Source: an uncultured Alphaproteobacteria bacterium (GTDB lineage: Bacteria > Pseudomonadota > Alphaproteobacteria > RF32 > CAG-239). Taken from it: a stretch of DNA of 64,000 bases. A program made the position numbers and the translations under genes. This document shows positions 8,933 through 50,701 of this stretch, piece after piece (the first letter of the stretch is position 1; each line of letters starts with the position of its first letter). The stretch is taken from positions 78,141-142,140 of the forward strand of contig CAJUKS010000004.1 in assembly GCA_910587405.1 (NCBI GenBank). The letters are read 5' to 3'. A model generated the notes under the pieces. The model was not told where the DNA came from. It ran no database searches and saw only the letters and a list, made by a program, of their open reading frames with translations.

Positions 8933-10270
8933 TTAGAAACCTTTGCCGGAAAAATGCCGCCGCGGTTGCGGTTTGGCCTTTTTGCCAAACCACAAATAAC
9001 AGACAAACAAGAACAGCAAAACCCGTGATACCGGCATCGCCAGCCAAACGCCGTCCATGCCGAACCACAAAGGCAGCGTAAACAGACATAACGGCAGGGC
9101 AACAAACGCGTCGCCGTAAATCAGCAGCGACGAATCAATAATTTTTCCGGTTGCCTGATAATAATAACCGGCCACCCGCACCACGCCCAGCAAGACAAAT
9201 GCGGTCGAACTGATAATCAAACCGTGCGCGGCTAAGGCCGCCGCCTCGCCGTGAAGATTAAACCATCCCGGAAAAACGTTATGCCCGGCAACCGAAACGC
9301 CCGTCATCACAATCCCCAACCCGAAGGCCGTATAATACCCCATATTGCCGATAACGTTCTGACGACGATAGCGACGGCCGCCGTACAAATAAGCGACCAA
9401 AGGCTGCACGCCGAGAGAAAGTCCGGTCATTAAAAGAGAACCGAGAGATTCCACCGCACCGACAAAAGTATACGCCGCCAGACCGTTCACCTGACCGTAT
9501 TTCAACGCTTGGTAATTATGAAAAAAAAGCATTGCAATGATCGACAGTTGGTTGCCCAACGACGGAAAACCGTTGACCAGAATATCTTTCAGATATTTAA
9601 ACTTCAGTTTGAACATCGCCCAGTCAAACCGCAGCTCGGTATAGCCGGTCGTGAAATACGTTAGCCCGGCCACCGCTATCACAACCTGAGAAACCACGGT
9701 CGCATAAGCGGCACCGGCAATGCCGCCGCCCAGCGGAAAAATAAACAGATAGTCAAGCGCCACATTCAGCAGCAGGCCGCCGATCATCAGCCACATCGAC
9801 AACACCGGGCGGCCGTCGTTGCGGATAACCGACAACATCGCCGTCACCAGCATATAGGCCAAATTGCCGACAATCAAAATCCGCGCATACCTTACCGCTC
9901 CCGGAATCAATTCGTCCGAAGCGCCGAAAAGCCGTAAAATATCAACCAGCCACATATAAACCGACACCGTCATTGCCGCGCTGAAAACCACCTGCCACAC
10001 CAGCATGTTGGCAAAACTGCGACGGGCCCGCCGAAGATCGCCGTTGCCCCGCGACTGCGAAATGATAATTGCCGCCCCGGTACCGAGCATATCGCCGACA
10101 GCGCCAAACAGCATCACCAGCGGCCAGGTGACCGCGACCGAAGCCAACCCGAGTTCTCCCGCGCTCCAACCGATAAAGATCGTGTCGACAATGCTGTAAG
10201 AACCGACGATCAGCATCCCGATCATCGAAGGTAACACGTACGACAAAAACAATTTTGTATTCTTCTTCAT
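8933..10270 (-). CDS. MATE-family multidrug efflux transporter
   Basis: 12-TM protein starting MKKNTKLFLSYVLPSMIGML (MATE N-terminal signature). I used the internal ATG at 10270 rather than the track start at 10360. Confidence 0.8.
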   Translation of the reverse strand: MKKNTKLFLSYVLPSMIGMLIVGSYSIVDTIFIGWSAGELGLASVAVTWPLVMLFGAVGDMLGTGAAIIISQSRGNGDLRRARRSFANMLVWQVVFSAAMTVSVYMWLVDILRLFGASDELIPGAVRYARILIVGNLAYMLVTAMLSVIRNDGRPVLSMWLMIGGLLLNVALDYLFIFPLGGGIAGAAYATVVSQVVIAVAGLTYFTTGYTELRFDWAMFKLKFKYLKDILVNGFPSLGNQLSIIAMLFFHNYQALKYGQVNGLAAYTFVGAVESLGSLLMTGLSLGVQPLVAYLYGGRRYRRQNVIGNMGYYTAFGLGIVMTGVSVAGHNVFPGWFNLHGEAAALAAHGLIISSTAFVLLGVVRVAGYYYQATGKIIDSSLLIYGDAFVALPLCLFTLPLWFGMDGVWLAMPVSRVLLFLFVCYLWFGKKAKPQPRRHFSGKGF

Positions 10271-35747: not shown

Positions 35748-35801
35748 AATTGATTGTATTGACGGAGATCAACCGCCCGCCGACAACGTTTCATATTTTA
35801 A

Positions 35802-36053
35802 TTACAAACCCCGTCTTCGATCCTCTTCAATTTGCTTGAATATTTCCGCCAACGAAACACCGATCGCATCTGCAATCATAATTAAAGTCATTAATTGCGG
35901 GGTTTGCTTAAAATCTTTAATATACGACAACGTGCTTTCGCTCAAACCGGTTTTCTTGGCGATTTGATAATTAGTCATACGGACGGCTTTCTGCTTTTCA
36001 ATTAAGGCAGAAATAACTTTGTCACTGATTATTTTGGCATCACGTTTATTCAT
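35802..36053 (-). CDS. XRE-family HTH protein, short paralog of 83 aa without the C-terminal extension
   Basis: NYQIAKKTGLSESTLSYIKDFKQTPQLMTLIMIADAIG. Last gene of a 4-gene HTH operon. Confidence 0.75.
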   Translation of the reverse strand: MNKRDAKIISDKVISALIEKQKAVRMTNYQIAKKTGLSESTLSYIKDFKQTPQLMTLIMIADAIGVSLAEIFKQIEEDRRRGL

Positions 36054-36105
36054 AAATTTACAATAAAACACATTGAGAAATTTATCAACTAATAACAATA
36101 GATTT

Positions 36106-36348
36106 CTATTTATACATTTTCCACAACGTGTCCAAAATTTCGCCGGGATGTTTGTTCAAGGCCTGCATGATGTCCAAATATTCGGTAATGTCAACCCGTC
36201 TTTCGCCGCTTTCGTTTTTGTAAACATAGGATTGAGGCTTGTTTAATCTGCGAGCAAGTTCGGTCTGTGTCAGGCCGGCGTCTTCGCGCGCCCGGCGCAG
36301 CAACTTGCGGAAATGAATGTACTCGGGGGTATAGAGAGACTGGGTCAT
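36106..36348 (-). CDS. XRE-family HTH protein (classic Cro/CI-type, 80 aa)
   Basis: AREDAGLTQTELARRLNKPQSYVYKNESGERRVDITEYLDIMQAL. Confidence 0.8.
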   Translation of the reverse strand: MTQSLYTPEYIHFRKLLRRAREDAGLTQTELARRLNKPQSYVYKNESGERRVDITEYLDIMQALNKHPGEILDTLWKMYK

Positions 36349-36390
36349 AAAATTTTTCCTAAACACATTGCCCAAACAAACGAAACGATA

Positions 36391-36762
36391 TCATTCTTCC
36401 GCAATATCGGCAAGGATTTTATAAGCCAGTTTCAGTTGCCGGGGAGAAAGCTTTTTAAGTTTGTGAAGGGCAGTGTAAAAAAGAGGATCTTTACCTAACA
36501 ACTCATTCTCGACCAACGCCGATTTCGGATAAGGATAATGTTGATACAACGCTTGCGGCAGGTCAAACTCTGTTGCGGCCGACAAACGGATCATCATTGA
36601 AAAGGTTGGATTCTGTTCAAAATTTTCAATTTTTGAGATCGAACTTTTACTGACGTCGGCTAACAAAGACAGGCGATAAGGCGTAATCTTTTTTAACTCG
36701 CAATGTTCTTTAAAAGCAAGGATGACGTTGTTGACAACGCTATGAGTTTCTCGTGTTTTCAT
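36391..36762 (-). CDS. XRE-family HTH protein with a ~45-aa C-terminal helical extension (paralog family)
   Basis: YRLSLLADVSKSSISKIENFEQNPTFSMMIRL, then LLGKDPLFYTALHKLKKLSPRQLKLAYKILADI. Confidence 0.8.
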   Translation of the reverse strand: MKTRETHSVVNNVILAFKEHCELKKITPYRLSLLADVSKSSISKIENFEQNPTFSMMIRLSAATEFDLPQALYQHYPYPKSALVENELLGKDPLFYTALHKLKKLSPRQLKLAYKILADIAEE

Positions 36763-36799
36763 ATTTTAACGACAAAAGATTTTTATTTTACAGTTGATT

Positions 36800-37168
36800 T
36801 TACTTCTTTCGGTTGACGAGTGTCAAAATAAGATCATGCGCAATTCTCAAGTCGTCTTCACTCAGCCTTTGCAAATTTTCAATCGTAACGTCAAAAAGCG
36901 GCGAACGCCCCAATAGTTCCATCGTCTGAGAATCTTTTCTCTCCGGATAGCTTTGCGCCACGATATCCGGGAAATAACATCCCAGATAGTCAGCTATGAT
37001 AGCCAAGGTCATAAAAGAAGGATTTTGTTTCAAACACTCAATCTTGGAGATGGAGCTTTCACTCATGCCGGTACCCTTAGCCAACTTGTATTGGCTAAGA
37101 TCACCTCGTGCTTCCCGCAGTTTGAGCACGATTTTATTGGTTATACTTTTTGCTTGTCGTTTATTCAT
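36800..37168 (-). CDS. XRE-family HTH protein with a C-terminal helical extension (paralog family)
   Basis: YKLAKGTGMSESSISKIECLKQNPSFMTLAIIADYL, then LLGRSPLFDVTIENLQRLSEDDLRIAHDLILTLV. Confidence 0.8.
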   Translation of the reverse strand: MNKRQAKSITNKIVLKLREARGDLSQYKLAKGTGMSESSISKIECLKQNPSFMTLAIIADYLGCYFPDIVAQSYPERKDSQTMELLGRSPLFDVTIENLQRLSEDDLRIAHDLILTLVNRKK

Positions 37169-37188
37169 AATACATAATATAAAATCAT

Positions 37189-37217
37189 TTGACTTTAACT
37201 TTATAACACTCTATGAT
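37189..37217 (+). promoter_or_regulatory. Sigma70 promoter driving structured RNA copy A and the small ORF, divergent from the HTH operon
   Basis: TTGACT, a 17-nt spacer, then TATGAT. The equivalent TTGACT-N16-TATACT is present upstream of copy B. Confidence 0.65.
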
Positions 37218-37223
37218 CCTAGA

Positions 37224-37548
37224 TAGTAGGTTAATATCTATAGCCATAATATTATTCTGACGCAATACCTGTTGCAGCAGGTATCCTAAGGGCTAGAGAT
37301 AGTCCGGATGAAGTGATGTTCATCTGAATTTAAACTCGTGCAGCATGTCGATGTAAATGCTGTGACTCGGCTATTGACTCTTTGAACAATAACTGAGATT
37401 ATATCCCCGGTCTTCGACTATCGGCCGGGGAGCCCTTCGGGCTTGCCTGAAGGATGCCATTTCACGAGTTATGGTAACATCACCTCCCCGGCCACCTTAT
37501 TTCCCGCCCTTGATTTTTGGTTTTCACTTTTTCACAACGAGGGCTGCT
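37224..37548 (+). ncRNA. Conserved structured RNA / long 5' leader, copy A (conserved core 37266-37496)
   Basis: The ~230-nt core is alignable to 49580-49805. At least three stems keep their pairing while the loops differ, and one base pair covaries. No coding potential. It ends at the SD of the small ORF. Confidence 0.65.
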
Positions 37549-37737
37549 ATGCTTCATCATCTTTTAAATAAAATTCTGCCGCAACAATCAAACATATCCC
37601 GCGAGTCCGATGACATCGACGAACCGATCCGCGGCATCCGGGAGCTTGAAACCTTTCTGGCAAATCAGAGCGAAGAAACCCGACAGGCCATTCATAAGGT
37701 CATTTCCTTTATTCTCTACCGCACCCCTTTGCAATAG
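37549..37737 (+). CDS. 62-aa protein, paralog of the ORF at 49853-50047, resembling the C-terminal extension of the neighbouring XRE paralogs
   Basis: GAGGGC SD 5 nt before the ATG. MLHHLLNK..DEPIRGIRELETFLANQSEETRQAIHKVISFIL compares with ..DEPIRNLKEFEAFVFSQSEETQRALGKIIAFIL. Confidence 0.65.
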   Translation: MLHHLLNKILPQQSNISRESDDIDEPIRGIRELETFLANQSEETRQAIHKVISFILYRTPLQ

Positions 37738-37815
37738 ACGGCAACAAAAAACCCCCGGCAAGCCGGGGGTGTAAAAACAACGGAAGCAGACGGCGATCGT
37801 CTCTTCCTTCGGATT

Positions 37816-38307
37816 TCAGGCTTTTGCTGCCGCAGACGCGCCGTACAGCCGGTCATAAAAGACAATCAGCGGTTTGTCGGCATGGTCGCGGAAGAAAGCC
37901 AGAGCTTTGTCGCACAAACGTCGTCTGTTGATGTACTTGACCGCGGTTTGCAATTTCTTTTGTTGCACCATTTCCATTTGCGCGGCTTCCGGCAGCGAAT
38001 GGAACTTGGCATAAATTGACAAGGCCTTGGGATAGTGAATCAAAAGCTTTTCGTTGGCGGCACGACAACGACGAAGGCGGAAATAAATACAGAAGAGATC
38101 CTTGCGGTTTCCTTCAATCAGTTTTCGCTCAACCTCCAAATCCAGCGGATATCTCTTGACGTAACACTCAAACTTTGTCGTATCACGCAAAGACAGCAGC
38201 TGAAACTGAGCTTTGGTTTTGAGCTTTCCTTCCTTTATCTGTTGCTTGAATTCCTGCAGACTGTGATATCCTGTCACCGCAATCTGCCCGTTTAACGATT
38301 TTTCCAT
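37816..38307 (-). CDS. Hypothetical protein (about 163 aa)
   Basis: Coherent ORF convergent with the small ORF. The terminator CCCCCGG-CTTG-CCGGGGG plus a T-run on the minus strand lies at about 37746-37775. The start is uncertain (ATG at 38307 or TTG at 38364). Confidence 0.5.
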   Translation of the reverse strand: MEKSLNGQIAVTGYHSLQEFKQQIKEGKLKTKAQFQLLSLRDTTKFECYVKRYPLDLEVERKLIEGNRKDLFCIYFRLRRCRAANEKLLIHYPKALSIYAKFHSLPEAAQMEMVQQKKLQTAVKYINRRRLCDKALAFFRDHADKPLIVFYDRLYGASAAAKA

Positions 38308-38438: not shown

Positions 38439-38780
38439 ATGCGCAGATTTTGGACATTTTTGCTGGCCGCCGCTTTTATCTTCGCCGCGTTTTCCGCTCA
38501 GGCGGGAGTACGGTTCATCACCGATGTGCCGCAAAACACCGTTCAGGGAAAACTGCCGTCGGCCTATGCCAAATCCAAAGGCAAACGTGACTGTCAATCC
38601 GCCGGTTACAACAAAACCTCCTGCAGCGAAGACGAATATCTGGTCAAACGTTGTCCTTATGACGGACGCTATTACAAAGCCTGTTGCGACAAAGAATATT
38701 CTCACTCCAAATCGTTTTGTTTGAGCCGCGGCAAAAAGCCCAGCCGCAGATCCTGCGAAGGACTTTATGCCTGCGAATAA
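38439..38780 (+). CDS. Secreted Cys-rich small protein (113 aa)
   Basis: Signal peptide MRRFWTFLLAAAFIFAAFSAQA, 10 Cys in the mature part, and the motif CPYDGRYYKACCDKEYS shared with the next large gene. A terminator lies at about 38797-38826. Confidence 0.7.
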   Translation: MRRFWTFLLAAAFIFAAFSAQAGVRFITDVPQNTVQGKLPSAYAKSKGKRDCQSAGYNKTSCSEDEYLVKRCPYDGRYYKACCDKEYSHSKSFCLSRGKKPSRRSCEGLYACE

Positions 38781-39133: not shown

Positions 39134-41371
39134 ATGAAAATATCGGGTAAAATTTGGGCGGTGTGCATGCTGTTGGCCTGCGGCTGCCTTTGGAGTGCCG
39201 GCAACGTTTCGGCCAAGGTTTGTTTCGTCGGCGATCCCGACTGTGCCGGCGGCGCCGACTTCGGCGAGTATGTTGATCCGGCGGCAGACGGCGAACTTTG
39301 CAAAAAGGAAGGCTATATTCTTAAAGCAGACTGCGAAGCCAACCCGGCCAAACATGTCACAGGCTATTGTCCGTACAACGCCAACTATGTCATGTGCTGC
39401 GGCAAAGAATACTCCTACGATTTGTGTTTATATCCGTTGGTTTCCGACGGCAAATGCGGCAACCGGCATAAATGTGTCTGCGATTCAAAGTTTCCTTTCA
39501 ACGACAACTACAATGACACTTCGTGCAAACTCAAATATCCCGGCAGCGTTGCCGACGGCGGTTCTTGCGTTCAGACGACTTACAATGCCGCCAACAATTC
39601 CGGCAAAACCGATATCTATTTCTCGGAATGCATCTGCAACCCGGCCTCTTATCCGTTTTTGCGCGAAGACTGCACCAACGGAACCGAACCTTCGGACGAC
39701 GGATGTACCGGCACCGACCGGATCACCCGCTATTCGTCTTGTATCTGCAACCGCGAAAAATATCAATTTGCCGCCGGCGACTGCGAATTCGGAGGCAACC
39801 TCGACAAGAAGGAATATTATTGTATCCAGGGCGGTTCGTATTTCTTTACCCAATGCTACAATTGCGATGCCTTTCCGGCGACTTCGCTTGATCATGTCAA
39901 GGGCGGCGAAGGTGTCGGCTACAAAAAATGCACTTACGGCAACCGCTATCAGATCTTGCAATGCGAAGCCGGATACCGTCCCGGCAAAGACGGCGATAAC
40001 TGCCGGGAACTGACCTGTGAAGAGGCCGTCGACGAATGGCTGACCACCTATCCGGAACAAAAAGCAAGATACACCCTGCTCGCAAGTCCGCAAAATATTC
40101 AGGACAGCAAACTGGTTAACGCAACCAGCAACGCTTCCAACATCAAGACTCAGAACGTGATTCTGGCAGACAATCAACAACTTTCCAAAATCTATGCCGG
40201 CATCAATTACTACGGCGCCAGCGCCTTTGGAAAACTGCGGGGCGGTTATATGGCCGAACGCTGCAAAACCCGTCCGAACATTGTTTACACCTCAAGCAAC
40301 AACGGTTTCTGGATTCCGTCTCATTCACCGTTCGGCTGGAGTTCGTCCACCAAAGGAAAAGTCAAGTTATACGGCTTAAAGCTCGATATGAGCAAATTTA
40401 ACGGAACTTTCCAGACCTCGTACGGAATTGATGCCACCAACATCGATATCACGGCCCGAAACTGGACGATCCCGGCAACCGTCGACTATGCGCCGCGCTT
40501 TGTTTACGACAAAAGTTACGATAACGAAGGCTACGAGGCGATGCCGACAATCAACATCACCGGCACTTTGACCATCCAAAGCAAAGCAACCTTTGACGGT
40601 GTATCGTTTAACAAAGAAGACGCCTATGCCGGCCGCGGCTACATGGATATCCAGGTTCCGGCTTCTTATAAGAGACAAACGATGGTTACTTTCGGCTTCA
40701 AAGAAGATCAGGAATTCAAAATCGGTTCAGTTTATATGTATCCGAAAGACGTCGGGGTATGTAATTTCCAAAATTCAGGTAACTGTCTGACCGATTATAA
40801 CACGACAATATCATTCACCGGTCCTAGTTCGGAAAACCCGGCCAACGTTTACACCAGCATATATCTCGGTTACGGATATCAGGGCGGAACGAAAATTGCC
40901 CATAACATGATTGCCAAACTGTCGGGGGCGTTGGTTTGGAATATGTATAAAGGGGGCGGAAACTACAACATTACGCTTTCTCCCGGAAGCAAAATATACT
41001 CGACCGATTACGGTTCCGGCGAATATGCCCGCATTAAACGCGGCAGCGATTCAAAATGGGGCTGGTGTCGGATGTCTTCCACTTACCGCGTCGTCAGATA
41101 CGGAAAACACAGCGGCTGCTTGTTCAGCAACTGTTGCGGAGACTGCAAATTCCGTACCGATAAAGGCGACGATTATGTTGAAAACTATTCCATGGTTTGT
41201 TCCGTCAACAAATCTGCCTCCAAATCTTACATTGCCGGCATGAGCTTAACCAGTTCGTCTAACTGCAAATGCGGAAATCAGCGTCCGAATCAAAGTCAAC
41301 TCAACCGATGTATTGTTGATTTCGGCGGACATACCCATGTCCTCATGAATTGCGGTGACAGCAAACTGTAA
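39134..41371 (+). CDS. Large secreted or lipoprotein Cys-rich protein (745 aa)
   Basis: Signal with a possible lipobox, MLLAC. The N-terminal ~300 aa carry repeated Cys modules (CPYNANYVMCCGKEYS; ECICNPASYPFLREDC; SCICNREKYQFAAGDC). There is a second Cys cluster at the C-terminus. RBS AAAGGGGAAGGG. Confidence 0.75.
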   Translation: MKISGKIWAVCMLLACGCLWSAGNVSAKVCFVGDPDCAGGADFGEYVDPAADGELCKKEGYILKADCEANPAKHVTGYCPYNANYVMCCGKEYSYDLCLYPLVSDGKCGNRHKCVCDSKFPFNDNYNDTSCKLKYPGSVADGGSCVQTTYNAANNSGKTDIYFSECICNPASYPFLREDCTNGTEPSDDGCTGTDRITRYSSCICNREKYQFAAGDCEFGGNLDKKEYYCIQGGSYFFTQCYNCDAFPATSLDHVKGGEGVGYKKCTYGNRYQILQCEAGYRPGKDGDNCRELTCEEAVDEWLTTYPEQKARYTLLASPQNIQDSKLVNATSNASNIKTQNVILADNQQLSKIYAGINYYGASAFGKLRGGYMAERCKTRPNIVYTSSNNGFWIPSHSPFGWSSSTKGKVKLYGLKLDMSKFNGTFQTSYGIDATNIDITARNWTIPATVDYAPRFVYDKSYDNEGYEAMPTINITGTLTIQSKATFDGVSFNKEDAYAGRGYMDIQVPASYKRQTMVTFGFKEDQEFKIGSVYMYPKDVGVCNFQNSGNCLTDYNTTISFTGPSSENPANVYTSIYLGYGYQGGTKIAHNMIAKLSGALVWNMYKGGGNYNITLSPGSKIYSTDYGSGEYARIKRGSDSKWGWCRMSSTYRVVRYGKHSGCLFSNCCGDCKFRTDKGDDYVENYSMVCSVNKSASKSYIAGMSLTSSSNCKCGNQRPNQSQLNRCIVDFGGHTHVLMNCGDSKL

Positions 41372-41762: not shown

Positions 41763-43025
41763 ATGAAAACTAACAAATTCTGGTTCGCAACGGCAGCAGC
41801 TGCCCTTGTAACCGTTATCTGCGTGTTCACCTCCTGCAGCAAGGAAGACGAGCCTTTCCTGCCAGAAGTGATCGAAAGTGAAGTTCTTGAAACCGGCATC
41901 AGCAATGACGTCAACGAGGTTTCCGGAACCGAAGGTACCAAACTGAGCTACGAATCCTGGATTGTGGTCAAGGGACAAACCCGCGCCGCTTTCGAGAACA
42001 AAGTCTCCGTTACTCTCTGCAATCAGTTGAACAATGTCGACAGTGTGATCACTGTGCAAAGCTTCGAACTCGGCGAATATACGACCGATATCGATTATCA
42101 GCCTTATGCTCAGCGAAGCGAAGGTTTCGTCACCGTCACCGACTCGGTGCTGGTGTATAAGGTGATTTTTGATCAATTTTCGTTTGCCTATAACCTGCAG
42201 TTCGAAGTTCCGGTGTATAACGACGGCGTGACCCGGCAGACCATGCCCTACCACCGTTACGGAAACATCAAGGACAACGGCTGTACGCTGGAAGAAATGG
42301 ACTTTTTGGTCGAGGCTTCCGACAACGGCATGGAATACGTCTATTTGCGCAAGTTGCTCTCACACTCGCTGACGGTCGAATTTAACGGCAGCGAATACAC
42401 CTTGACCGCAAAGATCGAATTGCGACGCAACCTCGGAACGGCACCTTGTATTGTTAAGTCCGAAGTTTTGGAAGACGGCAAGGACATCCTGCAATCTGGT
42501 GTTTTCGGCGCGCTTTCCGAAGTTCATTATCAATCGTGGATTAAGGTAAAGCAGTTTTGGTCCGACGGCAACGTGGTCGAAAAAACTTATACCAACCAGT
42601 GTGCGGTAGAGATTTCGCTCAATACCGAATCTAAGATGTATAAGATTCTGCCCGACATCGAAATCATACGGGAAAAAGCGGCGACGGTTACGGGAGAAAC
42701 CGAAGAAACCGCATTCGGATCCGAAACCGAATATATCCGGAGCTATGTGACCCACAAGTCTTATGAAATAAAGTACAATTATTTCACTTTGACGTACCTG
42801 TTTCAGGATATGGTTCCCGTCTATGACGACAATGTCACCCGCCACCAAATGCCGAGCTATCAGTTTGACCAAATCAGCGACAGCTTCCGTCTGTCTGCGG
42901 GTGCCGACGACTATGTCAACGGAAATCCGGCATTCGGCTATATTTTCTATTCGAAACTGTCTTTCCAATTCGGCAACATTGAAAGCTCTTTCGACAAGGA
43001 CATATCGCTGTATGTGCTGAAGTAA
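41763..43025 (+). CDS. Lipoprotein with an internal two-fold repeat
   Basis: MKTNKFWFATAAAALVTVICVFTSCSKEDE, a lipobox followed by acidic residues. There are two ~150-aa repeats, each ending in VPVY(N/D)D(G/N)VTR(Q/H)xMP. Confidence 0.75.
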   Translation: MKTNKFWFATAAAALVTVICVFTSCSKEDEPFLPEVIESEVLETGISNDVNEVSGTEGTKLSYESWIVVKGQTRAAFENKVSVTLCNQLNNVDSVITVQSFELGEYTTDIDYQPYAQRSEGFVTVTDSVLVYKVIFDQFSFAYNLQFEVPVYNDGVTRQTMPYHRYGNIKDNGCTLEEMDFLVEASDNGMEYVYLRKLLSHSLTVEFNGSEYTLTAKIELRRNLGTAPCIVKSEVLEDGKDILQSGVFGALSEVHYQSWIKVKQFWSDGNVVEKTYTNQCAVEISLNTESKMYKILPDIEIIREKAATVTGETEETAFGSETEYIRSYVTHKSYEIKYNYFTLTYLFQDMVPVYDDNVTRHQMPSYQFDQISDSFRLSAGADDYVNGNPAFGYIFYSKLSFQFGNIESSFDKDISLYVLK

Positions 43026-48448: not shown

Positions 48449-48823
48449 TTATTCTTCGTTAAGGGCGCGCACCATTTTATAAATAAAGCGCAACTTTTTT
48501 TCATTCACCTTTTTAAGACCTTCCAACACCAACTGAAAAGTCGGCGAAAGCGTCAGTGTTTCATCTTCTATTTGATTGGCAGAATCGGGAAAATTATCCT
48601 TAAGCGCTTGCGGCAGATCAAAATTGAGACTGATCGCCATTTCAATGAGAGTACTCAAAGTTGGGTTTTGCTTTAGATCCTCTATTTTTGCAATCGAACT
48701 TTCACTGAGGCCGGTATCGTGTGCCAATCTGTAACGACTCACTTTCTGTTTTATCCTTTCTTTCTTCATCGCAAGGACTATTTGATTAACCCGGCTCTGA
48801 TTCTTTCTTTTATTGACTAACAT
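48449..48823 (-). CDS. XRE-family HTH protein with a C-terminal helical extension (paralog family)
   Basis: YRLAHDTGLSESSIAKIEDLKQNPTLSTLIEMAISL, then LTLSPTFQLVLEGLKKVNEKKLRFIYKMVRAL. It has its own terminator at about 48415-48445. Confidence 0.8.
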   Translation of the reverse strand: MLVNKRKNQSRVNQIVLAMKKERIKQKVSRYRLAHDTGLSESSIAKIEDLKQNPTLSTLIEMAISLNFDLPQALKDNFPDSANQIEDETLTLSPTFQLVLEGLKKVNEKKLRFIYKMVRALNEE

Positions 48824-49041: not shown

Positions 49042-49422
49042 TTAACGACCGTTGAGCGCTCTTGCCACTTTGTAAATCACTTGCAGCGTTTCCTCATCCA
49101 TCTGTTTAAGACATTCGACCACCAAATGGAAAGTCGGCGACAGCGTCAGCAACTCTTCCTCACCTTCTCTTTCATCAGCGGTGTCCGGAAAGTTTTCCTT
49201 AAGTGCCTGCGGCAGATCAAAATTGAGACTGATCGCCATTTCAATGATCGTACTCAAAGTCGGATTTTGTCTTAACTCTTCAATATTTGCAATTGAACTG
49301 TCACTTAATCCGATATCTCGGGCTAATTTGTACCTAGTAATCTTTTTACTTATTCTTGCTTTTTTCATCTCAAGAATAATCTGATTAACTCGTCCCTGAT
49401 TCTTTCTTTTGTTTACTAACAT
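49042..49422 (-). CDS. XRE-family HTH protein with a C-terminal helical extension. Close paralog of 48449-48823.
   Basis: YKLARDIGLSDSSIANIEELRQNPTLSTIIEMAISL, then LTLSPTFHLVVECLKQMDEETLQVIYKVARAL. Terminator at about 49015-49040. Confidence 0.8.
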   Translation of the reverse strand: MLVNKRKNQGRVNQIILEMKKARISKKITRYKLARDIGLSDSSIANIEELRQNPTLSTIIEMAISLNFDLPQALKENFPDTADEREGEEELLTLSPTFHLVVECLKQMDEETLQVIYKVARALNGR

Positions 49423-49511: not shown

Positions 49512-49852
49512 TAGTATAGAGAAATACAGTCGCAACAATGATTTTGCAAGTAAGCCTCATTCATTATTATTTTAAACCATACCTATCAAACAGGTATCCG
49601 TAGGGCTAGAGATAGTCCGGACGAATTAGCATTCGTCTGTTAGCACTTGTGCAGCATGGGATATAAATGCTGTAACTCAGTTATTGACTCTTCATAAAAT
49701 AACTGAGATTATATCCCCGGTCACTGACTATCGGCCGGGGAGCCCTCTGGTTCGTCCCGAGGATGCCATTTCACAAGTGATGGTAATGCTAACTCCCCGG
49801 CCACCTTTTCTTTCAGCCCCGACTTTAACTTTATTTTTGCATGAGGGCAGTC
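49512..49852 (+). ncRNA. Conserved structured RNA / long 5' leader, copy B (conserved core about 49580-49805)
   Basis: Promoter TTGACT-N16-TATACT at about 49478-49505. The core aligns with 37266-37496. Coordinates here are +/-1 nt. Confidence 0.65.
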
Positions 49853-50047
49853 ATGGGCCAACCGATTTCCAACCAAAACAAAACAACCGTTTCCACCACT
49901 TCGGGTCGCGAACCAAACGATCTAAACGACGAACCGATCCGCAACCTTAAGGAGTTTGAAGCTTTTGTATTCAGCCAAAGCGAGGAAACCCAGCGCGCCT
50001 TGGGCAAGATTATCGCTTTTATCTTGCACTGCGCCAGGGAACAATAG
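49853..50047 (+). CDS. 64-aa protein, paralog of the ORF at 37549-37737
   Basis: GAGGGC SD before the second ATG of the track ORF 49841-50047. MGQPISNQ..LNDEPIRNLKEFEAFVFSQSEETQRALGKIIAFILHCAREQ. Confidence 0.65.
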   Translation: MGQPISNQNKTTVSTTSGREPNDLNDEPIRNLKEFEAFVFSQSEETQRALGKIIAFILHCAREQ

Positions 50048-50056
50048 TCAACATCA

Positions 50057-50259
50057 CTCTTGACTATTAAGCAATTTACTGAGATGATACCCCCGGTCAC
50101 TGACTATCGGCCGGGGAGCCTCTGCTTTGTCCTGAGGATGCCATTTCTTGTGTAATGGTAACGCTAACTCTCCGGCCGCCTTTTTCGGCCCGGGGAGCCT
50201 CTGCTTTGTCCTGAGGATGCCATTTTTTGTGTAATGGTAACATCACCTCCTCGGCCGCC
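50057..50259 (+). repeat. Two further partial tandem copies of the 3' module of the structured RNA
   Basis: 50057-50180 and 50186-50259 both repeat ..CCCCGG..GGCCGGGGAGCC..CCTGAGGATGCCATTT..TAATGGTAAC..C(T/C)CGGCCGCC. Confidence 0.7.
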
Positions 50260-50701
50260 TTTTTCGGCCCCGTTTCTCAGTCTTTTGCCGACGATCTCCC
50301 GCTTCCCGGATAATTTCCGCTGCGGGATGTTTTCTTTCGATCTGCGGGACGCACCGCTTTCAACTCTCTTTTTCAACCCCGATTTCGGCCGGTTTTTCTC
50401 CGATTCCCGGACCGGCTCTCGCTGCGCTTTTTATCGCAGTCAACCGCTCGCGCCGGCCGCAAAAACGCCGCGCTGCCTTTGCCTTCCAAAAACAAAAGCG
50501 CCCGATTGACAGGACACTCAGAACACCTTATAAAGAAAAAACCCGGTGCAGGAACACCGGGTTTTCAGTAACCTCTGAAAGAAGTTGACGTGTAACTTCA
50601 ATCAACATGGTTACAGTATAAGCTTAATTTTATAATTTGTCAATGACAACTGATAGATAAGCTTGTCAGCTTCTTTCATACAAACGAAAGGAGTGACGGC
50701 A

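Follow-up and report, generated by a model that had tools for sequence, protein, structure and literature searches.

Small helical proteins behind a structured leader RNA, divergent from XRE repressor genes in uncultured gut Alphaproteobacteria: possible analogues of SinI- and AimX-type anti-repressors

Introduction

Does a small protein encoded beside a set of XRE-type repressors act on these repressors, and if so, is it a copy of their own C-terminal tail? The question is raised by an open reading frame (ORF) of 62 codons, here named S1, in a stretch of 64,000 nt (the window) from contig CAJUKS010000004.1 of an uncultured alphaproteobacterium, and by its paralogue S2 in the same window. Each S gene is preceded by a leader of about 280 nt, and the leader–S units lie next to XRE genes, H1, H2, H5, and H6 in locus A (S1) and H3 and H4 in locus B (S2). 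The initial annotation of the window considered the S proteins to be free-standing copies of the tails of the adjacent XRE regulators, in the manner of SinI and SinR, suggested that such a switch could control the adjacent surface and secreted genes, and proposed profile–profile comparison as a check.

Small helical anti-repressors occupying a repressor's C-terminal oligomerization domain are documented (bioRxiv 10.1101/2025.11.23.689978). One of them, AimX, is a small, mostly helical protein that binds this domain of an XRE repressor, has no obvious sequence similarity to the bound domain, and has a fold that varies with the repressor (bioRxiv 10.1101/2025.11.23.689978). Here, we report that S1 and S2 belong to a conserved, lineage-restricted protein family preceded by a structured RNA. 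By analogy, the likeliest among several roles for S is that of a functional counterpart, with no detectable homology, of the small partners in SinI/SinR, AimX/AimC, and RstC/RstR.

Conservation and predicted fold of the S proteins

A six-frame motif search of the window found exactly one further copy of S, which is S2. The two proteins are 52% identical across 42 residues (BLOSUM62 score 113; tblastn E ~1e-10), and their alignment contains the motif that the initial annotation had quoted as shared. Searches with the invariant leader motif and the ORF profile retrieved ~40 related loci (given below by their L numbers) in which the S ORF is kept, and its frame is broken in a few of them only; S2 is conserved in L020, L051, and L052. 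Three subtypes were distinguished, S1-like (62–71 residues), S2-like (64–79 residues), and S3-like (81–83 residues). The latter adds a basic C-terminal tail, KAKGKLPRIN, whereas S1 and S2 are acidic and lack a basic tail.

All length differences and indels are multiples of three, and the frame is preserved across the three subtypes. Within the 36-codon core, differences are dominated by the third codon position (e.g., 4, 0, and 14 or 6, 0, and 18 differences at positions 1, 2, and 3), and the ratio of nonsynonymous to synonymous rates (dN/dS) is ~0.02–0.2. The start codon is conserved among relatives together with the Shine-Dalgarno sequence, GAGGG, which lies 5 nt before the ATG of S1 and 6 nt ahead of the S2 ATG at 49853. 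Given the codon-position pattern and the low dN/dS, S1 and S2 are real protein-coding genes under strong purifying selection.

In the AlphaFold2 model of S1, built from a 19-sequence alignment, residues 30–38 and 42–58 form helices joined by a three-residue turn, all with a predicted local distance difference test score (pLDDT) above 90; a two-helix hairpin of about 30 residues is also what characterizes SinI-type proteins. This conserved core (~26–58) follows an N-terminal part that is variable, acidic, and predicted to be disordered. As read from the sequence, the hairpin is amphipathic, and its hydrophobic positions outnumber those that a hairpin on its own would require; this implies that it has a partner or dimerizes.

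The family is isolated. S1 as a single query returned one protein cluster, and the S profile, searched by word index against 5.8e9 proteins, returned 26 clusters, all of the S family; HMMER, run exhaustively on 1.84 billion representatives, yielded five proteins, again all S family members. No family in Pfam, PHROGs, PADLOC, or NCBIfam matches S, and at E ≤ 1 neither protein matches the Pfam SinI family PF08671 (S1 reaches only KANSL3_1st at E = 0.071, S2 nothing). The S family occurs in five gut "Azospirillum-like" species known as metagenome-assembled genomes (MAGs) only, and the leader, among 185,579 species-representative genomes, is confined to five MAGs of uncultured Azospirillum or Alphaproteobacteria from gut samples. 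We thus regard the small S1 and S2 as genuine, cytoplasmic members of a lineage-restricted orphan family with a predicted core of an amphipathic helix–turn–helix hairpin. A prophage origin of the leader–S unit was considered as well and is not supported, because the leader is absent from the IMG/VR viral contigs.

XRE regulators adjacent to the S genes

The six XRE genes all lie on the minus strand and diverge from the leader–S units, and their products all match Pfam HTH_3 (from E = 1.4e-10 for H1 to 2e-06 among H1–H4). Only H1–H4 have a tail of ~45 residues, with the consensus E.ELL..SP.F.....LK..S...L. The AlphaFold2 model of H4 comprises the five helices of the helix-turn-helix (HTH) domain, a linker at residues 81–90 with pLDDT below 50, and two tail helices, 96–106 and 110–125, again with a three-residue turn. 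Against PDB, the H1–H4 profile matches the phi106 repressor (chain 9sf2_A, E = 9.5e-7), mostly over HTH and linker, and SinR chains at E = 7e-4. For the H4 model, Foldseek places full-length SinR (1b0n_A) second (115 columns, root-mean-square deviation 13 Å, E = 0.016). The PADLOC capH model runs approximately end to end on H1 (E = 4.3e-10, residues 9–114) and H4 (E = 1.2e-6), and NCBIfam RstR matches H1 and H4 weakly (26 bits versus a curated cut-off of 80). Pfam PF08671 is not matched by the H1–H4 tails. The predicted layout of H1–H4, with HTH, linker, and a short two-helix tail, resembles that of SinR, AimC, and CapH.

Among the related loci there are chimeric XRE proteins, e.g., one with the N-terminal HTH of H4 and the tail of H3, and thus the paralogues exchange domains by recombination. 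XRE gene fragments were also seen in L043 and L017.

Comparison of S with the XRE tails

According to the initial annotation, the pattern of S recurs in the XRE tails. This is borne out for the predicted shape: S1 and the H4 tail both are predicted as helix, three-residue turn, and helix (30–38/42–58 versus 96–106/110–125), and as far as the models go they do agree in helix lengths and turn. It could not be confirmed for the sequence, the likeness of which is no stronger than in shuffled controls. The results of sequence comparison and, as described further below, the details of gene linkage weigh against S as a hairpin made to pair with these tails.

In Smith-Waterman comparisons of S1 and S2 with four tails, seven of the eight pairs equalled their shuffled controls (1000 shuffles). 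The sole outlier is S1–H4 (z = 3.3, p = 0.011, uncorrected for eight tests); these two have EET.Q.I.KV in common. The profile–profile comparison, run as hhalign, gave a probability of only 1–9%, namely 1.2–1.8% (P = 0.027–0.045) for S versus full-length XRE proteins and 5–9% (P = 0.004–0.008) versus an alignment of tails only. The top local alignment in every run covers the acidic turn and the second helix (S 37–55 versus H4 105–123). Column-shuffled nulls reached the observed score in 1/300 and 0/300 cases, but we rejected this significance, as column shuffling destroys helical periodicity; the reversed tail scores 12.5, versus 16.6 for the real one. When 586 ORF segments of the window were searched with the hidden Markov model (HMM) of the tails, S1 was found at E = 2.1 and S2 was outside the top 25, and the S HMM gives H4 at E = 20.

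The alignment itself has two awkward features: both the proline and the acidic patch can be aligned only with a two-residue indel in helix 1, and the invariant leucine of the tails falls on Arg/Gln of S. Among PDB chains, a helical repeat designed de novo ("EETLRIVYVIV") comes closest to the tail profile, and hence the tail motif is a generic helix start. A proline opening helix 1, a capping box S/D/N-x-E/D-E/D opening helix 2, and amphipathic periodicity are generic to helical hairpins. We conclude that the pattern seen in S and tails consists of these three features; that two short helical segments are alike in the order Pro–helix–acidic patch–helix is no evidence of homology. Database searches point the same way. 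No XRE protein is among the S matches in 5.8e9 proteins (word-indexed profile search) or 1.84e9 representatives (HMMER), S matches no PDB sequence at E ≤ 10, including SinI, AimX, and Rop, and Foldseek of the S1 model against PDB returned nothing, Rop included. Hence the view of S as a free-standing copy of the XRE tail could not be upheld, there being no significant pairwise, profile–profile, or database link, and homology is of low probability.

A regulatory connection between S and XRE as such is supported by their constant linkage: the leader–S unit is divergent from an XRE gene in every one of ~36 loci with upstream sequence. The details of this linkage do not favour S as an obligate mimic of the tail. 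Firstly, the immediate XRE neighbour is tail-less (H5 or H6) in approximately one-third of loci, and three contigs, all independent and of the E20-like species (L018, L057, L058), carry only the tail-less H6 between ldh and the leader. Secondly, the type of S does not co-vary with the type of XRE. Near-identical S3 proteins adjoin both H1/H2 and H3/H4 arrays in the species that was sampled most, and in L052 an S2-type protein adjoins an array-A XRE.

Structure of the leader RNA

The ~280 nt preceding each S ORF are conserved more than the N-terminal part of S itself. The initial annotation had the leader as structured, and 15 covarying pairs together with a hairpin sequestering the Shine-Dalgarno sequence confirm this. 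In an alignment of 23 distinct leaders (A6), 96% of the cells of a specified structure of 71 pairs are paired, versus 30–41% in slid controls, and the number of pairs with compensatory double changes, 15, was reached by 0/500 shuffles. The minimum free energy has z = -3.7, and RNAalifold independently finds the local hairpins, the three-way junction, and the sequestering hairpin. The whole window has no Rfam match to the leader at the gathering threshold, and region 37150–37820 has no relevant one at E ≤ 10. As the hairpin sequesters the Shine-Dalgarno sequence, it is reasonable to suppose that the leader fold gates translation of S.

Two long-range helices of 7 bp, a and b, stand out in the leader. 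Their segments are 2.7 times as diverse as the remaining leader and mostly are kept complementary; each helix exists in four allele pairs, which assort independently, and eight fully matched combinations were observed. Mismatched 5' and 3' alleles in one or both helices were found in 12 of 35 full leaders, all on metagenome contigs of one species (L025, L029, L031, L032, L034, L036, L040, L041, L042, L049, L050). These leaders are either recombinants, possibly switched off, or artefacts of assembly that join parts of different copies.

After S2, the 3' half of the leader is repeated twice more in tandem, and such extra copies were also seen in L020, L021, L051, and L052. The two copies in the window carry further 7-nt alleles, CTTGTGT/ACGCTAA and TTTGTGT/ACATCAC, and the last of these could pair with leader A at its 5' loop, to which it is complementary.

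Rearrangement of XRE genes and leader–S units

Between ldh and the leader, contigs of the same species show the XRE genes in permuted order, although the cassettes are 95–99% identical. The orders H5-H6-H1-H2, H6-H1-H2-H5, H2-H5-H6-H1, and H2-H5 were observed, cyclic rotations included, and several of them recur in multiple independent assemblies (window 35802–37168, L024, L047, L037, L028, L016, L059–L062). Thus, a different XRE gene with its promoter abuts the leader in each contig. No recombinase gene was found, and the cassette borders show no clear att-like core, only short repeats near start codons. A 20-nt repeat at 35789–35808, by the 3' end of H5, is a 90% identical copy of the start-codon region of H2 (36757–36776) and has the look of a remnant from a former junction of cassettes.

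In the species that was sampled most, two leader–S units are convergent and ~6.5 kb apart, and their junctions differ among contigs. In some contigs, the pair flanks pfk and rpsU, in others the genes for the 163-residue protein and the Cys-rich proteins, which implies recombination between leader–S copies. In L059–L062, the S gene is at 10001–10252 and the second copy at ~16–17 kb; L028 and L029 are on one contig, OBJG01000818.1.

Promoters, operator candidate, and neighbouring genes

The intergenic regions on the XRE side have a TTGAC promoter each, and the sequence just upstream of the conserved leader, this promoter included, changes with the adjacent XRE gene. The promoter facing leader A likewise lies in a variable stretch that goes along with its XRE neighbour (Table 1). 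Directly after its -10 element there is a palindrome that is conserved in L037, where H1 also adjoins, and that may serve H1 as operator. Midway along the leader, a second promoter-like site is invariant in all copies, and from it the 3' half of the leader could be transcribed apart from the 5' half.

S1 is followed by a G+C-rich terminator hairpin that was scored on the minus strand, where its T run serves the convergent gene for the 163-residue protein; on the plus strand it is followed only by GUAAAAACAAC. S1 transcription probably ends there, so that the leader–S1 transcript would be monocistronic and no downstream gene in locus A would be controlled by S1 translation. Genes for the 163-residue protein and the Cys-rich 113-residue secreted protein are within a few kb downstream of leader–S in many loci of four species, whereas in locus B and L059–L062 the downstream genes are different (pfk, rpsU).

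Table 1. Features of the two leader–S/XRE loci in the window.
Feature	Position	Strand	Description
H5	35802–36053	-	XRE, 83 residues, no tail; locus A
H6	36106–36348	-	XRE, 80 residues, no tail; locus A; sole XRE beside leader–S in the E20-like species
H2	36391–36762	-	XRE paralogue, 123 residues, HTH_3 and tail; locus A
H1	36800–37168	-	XRE paralogue, 122 residues, HTH_3 and predicted two-helix tail; locus A; immediate divergent neighbour of leader A
Sigma-70-like promoter	37189–37217	+	TTGACT-17-TATGAT facing leader A; 10/12 match
Palindrome	37220–37240		TAGATA-N9-TATCTA, directly after the -10 of the leader promoter; read from sequence
Leader A	37265–37548	+	5' leader of S1; conserved block from ~37247; local hairpins, three-way junction, two long-range 7-bp helices
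Long-range helix a	37313–37319 : 37477–37483	+	GUGAUGU (loop of hairpin 37306–37325) : ACAUCAC; 5/7 pairs covary
Long-range helix b	37334–37340 : 37463–37469	+	ACUCGUG : CACGAGU (loop of hairpin 37456–37475); 5/7 pairs covary
Putative internal promoter	37374–37402	+	TTGACT-17-TG-n-GATTAT (TTGACT-17-TGAGATTAT), extended -10; mid-leader, invariant in all copies
Closing helix of three-way junction, leader A	37423–31 : 37485–93	+	GGCCGGGGA : UCCCCGGCC; part of leader structure
Shine-Dalgarno hairpin of S1	37506–37544	+	GCCCU 37506–10 : AGGGC 37540–44; RNAalifold; one compensatory pair (CG to UA, 4 sequences)
S1	37549–37737	+	ORF under study; 62 codons and stop, product MLHHLLNKILPQQSNISRESDDIDEPIRGIRELETFLANQSEETRQAIHKVISFILYRTPLQ
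Terminator hairpin, G+C-rich	37751–37770		between S1 (+) and the convergent 163-residue protein gene (-)
163-residue protein gene	37816–38307	-	conserved; convergent with S1; no match in Pfam, PHROGs, PADLOC, NCBIfam
113-residue Cys-rich secreted protein gene	38439–38780	+	no Pfam match
745-residue Cys-rich secreted protein gene	39134–41371	+	no Pfam match
420-residue lipoprotein-like protein gene	41763–43025	+	no Pfam match
H3	48449–48823	-	XRE paralogue, 124 residues, HTH and tail; locus B
H4	49042–49422	-	XRE paralogue, 126 residues, HTH and tail; divergent neighbour of leader B
Leader B	49579–49852	+	leader of S2; architecture of leader A with other alleles, UUAGCAU/AUGCUAA and ACUUGUG/CACAAGU
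S2	49853–50047	+	64-residue paralogue of S1
Extra 3'-half leader copies	50057–50185 and 50185–50264	+	tandem, after S2; blastn; no S ORF follows
Putative promoter of first 3'-half copy	50060–50088	+	TTGACT-17-TG-GATGAT

Possible functions of S

The predicted layout of H1–H4, similar to that of SinR, AimC, and CapH, makes an anti-repressor role of S plausible. The likeliest reading, still a tentative one, is that S is an amphipathic hairpin that heterodimerizes with the C-terminal hairpin of H1–H4 and antagonizes these repressors in the manner of SinI or AimX. Each S would be produced from its own unit, running from the XRE-proximal promoter through the ~280-nt leader to S, with a terminator hairpin added in locus A. 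The S hairpin would dock on the predicted two-helix oligomerization tail of H1–H4 to form a mixed four-helix bundle, and this would break the repressor oligomers and relieve repression. Transcription of S would be set by whichever XRE gene and promoter adjoin the leader, and the leader would constitute a second, post-transcriptional gate, its fold deciding whether the Shine-Dalgarno sequence is sequestered. We infer the S–XRE interaction, antagonism as its direction, the operators, and an input signal for the leader.

It is rather unlikely, though a serious competitor, that S is instead the regulated output of the XRE switch, such that the adjacent XRE represses the leader–S promoter and S acts on some other target, e.g., RNA polymerase, another regulator, or the convergent 163-residue protein, and thereby controls the neighbouring orphan secreted Cys-rich proteins. 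The persistence of leader–S beside a sole tail-less XRE in one species and the independence of S type from XRE type would be natural for an output, and so would the promoter region that each XRE brings upstream of the leader, with the palindrome just after the -10. The recurrence of the genes for the 163-residue and the Cys-rich 113-residue proteins near leader–S in four species would fit as well, but these genes are replaced by pfk and rpsU in locus B and L059–L062. Moreover, searches of Pfam, PHROGs, PADLOC, and NCBIfam found in S neither a DNA-binding nor a known interaction domain, and a two-helix hairpin by itself seldom binds DNA. Since the tail-bearing XRE family is limited to the lineage that carries S, phyletic patterns cannot separate these models.

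The anti-repressor model can be extended to a scheme that we regard as unlikely, in which the loci would be copy-specific, RNA-gated anti-repressor circuits. The two 7-nt pairings would serve as an address code, comparable to that of c4 in P1/P7, that keeps the leader–S copies of one cell orthogonal. Recombination would reset the circuit by permuting the XRE genes next to the promoter, and thereby the repressor that controls S, and by exchanging leader parts, the resulting mismatched leaders switching S synthesis; the outcome would be phase variation, at the levels of DNA and RNA, of orphan secreted or surface proteins in a gut commensal.

Another possibility, still less probable, is that S binds RNA and autoregulates its own leader, with a Rop-like hairpin dimer recognizing the two 7-bp helices and the XRE proteins acting at the promoter only. 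S and leader are inseparable in all full copies, the two long-range helices involve hairpin loops, and Rop, like S, is a helical hairpin of ~60 residues; S3 moreover has its basic tail. On the other hand, the searches of PDB by sequence and with the S1 model did not return Rop, S1 and S2 are acidic and have no basic tail, and the 3'-half leader copies after S2 lack an S gene of their own.

We assign a similarly low likelihood to S being a true homologue of the tail, i.e., a duplicated, excised, and highly diverged copy related to H1–H4 as SinI is to the C-terminus of SinR. Equal dimensions of helix, turn, and helix, the EET.Q.I.KV shared by S1 and H4, and hhalign alignments that always fall on the turn and second helix (with the low tails-only P-values and at most 1/300 column shuffles) would be expected of such a copy. 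They are outweighed by the hhalign probabilities of 1–9% and the score that the reversed tail still reaches, by the failure of the tail HMM to detect S2 and the insignificant E-values for S1 and H4, by the Leu-to-Arg/Gln position and the helix-1 indel, and by designed helical repeats that match the tail motif equally well. Finally, a non-functional S, be it an ORF that arose by chance or a leader peptide with a regulatory role in a non-coding RNA, might explain why gene callers often miss it, why the S1 query found one cluster, and why it directly follows a long structured RNA, but is very improbable given the dominance of third-position changes with dN/dS down to ~0.02, the frame-preserving indels, the conserved Shine-Dalgarno sequence and start codon, the confident predicted fold, and the terminator hairpin that follows S1 in locus A.

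Comparison with known systems

The biofilm switch SinI/SinR of Bacillus subtilis (PDB 1B0N) resembles the loci described here in three respects: an XRE repressor with HTH, linker, and two-helix C-terminal domain (as predicted for H1–H4), a protein of ~60 residues with a helical hairpin encoded alongside the repressor, and several paralogous repressors with similar tails (cf. SinR and SlrR). However, SinI and the SinR C-terminus are recognizably homologous, whereas the similarity of S and tails is not significant and neither of them matches PF08671. In addition, the S and XRE genes are divergent rather than in tandem, S has a structured leader of ~280 nt, and its host is an alphaproteobacterium rather than a firmicute.

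The arbitrium phages provide the second parallel, AimX/AimC (PDB 9SF2), as the H1–H4 profile matches the phi106 repressor that was crystallized with AimX. In contrast to arbitrium, there are no aimR or aimP genes and no phage context here: the flanking genes are cellular (ldh, acpP, fabF, pfk), and other neighbours have no Pfam match. S matches no AimX chain in the PDB sequence search at E ≤ 10, and a structured leader takes the place of AimR-controlled transcription.

In the layout of HTH and putative short C-terminal oligomerization region, H1 and H4 also are similar to CapH of the CBASS (cyclic-oligonucleotide-based anti-phage signalling) systems and to RstR of CTX-phi, which is antagonized by RstC. 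However, there is no adjacent CapP/ImmA-type metallopeptidase or CBASS gene, the neighbours having no Pfam match, the RstR score is far under the curated cut-off, and S is unlike any of the listed partners.

The leader may be compared with the c4 antisense RNA of the P1/P7 immI region (RF01695) and the CI RNA of P4, where an RNA upstream of a small ORF has two short sequences complementary to later sites of the same transcript. The c4 pairings differ compensatorily between related elements (heteroimmunity) and gate synthesis of an anti-repressor (icd-ant). Similarly, the leader has two 7-nt multi-allelic, compensatory pairings upstream of S, i.e., covariation of two pairs as in C4. In contrast to C4, its target segments are 60–85 nt upstream of the S start codon, not over the ribosome-binding site, and the locus is chromosomal rather than a prophage. 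The Rfam model RF01695 has no match in the whole window at the gathering threshold or in 37150–37820 at E ≤ 10.

If S is indeed an anti-repressor, switches of the SinI/AimX type would extend to circuits on the chromosomes of uncultured gut Alphaproteobacteria, and the long structured leader would add an unusual extra layer. Whatever S does, the locus offers an orphan family of small proteins kept by strong purifying selection, a structured RNA, so far undescribed, in which covariation is clear, and natural variation in the XRE gene beside a promoter. Compared with the known systems, the leader–S/XRE loci are best described as a variant of the theme of small protein and XRE repressor with an undescribed structured leader, and what is more unusual about them is the leader RNA, the permutation within XRE arrays, and recombination between leader copies.

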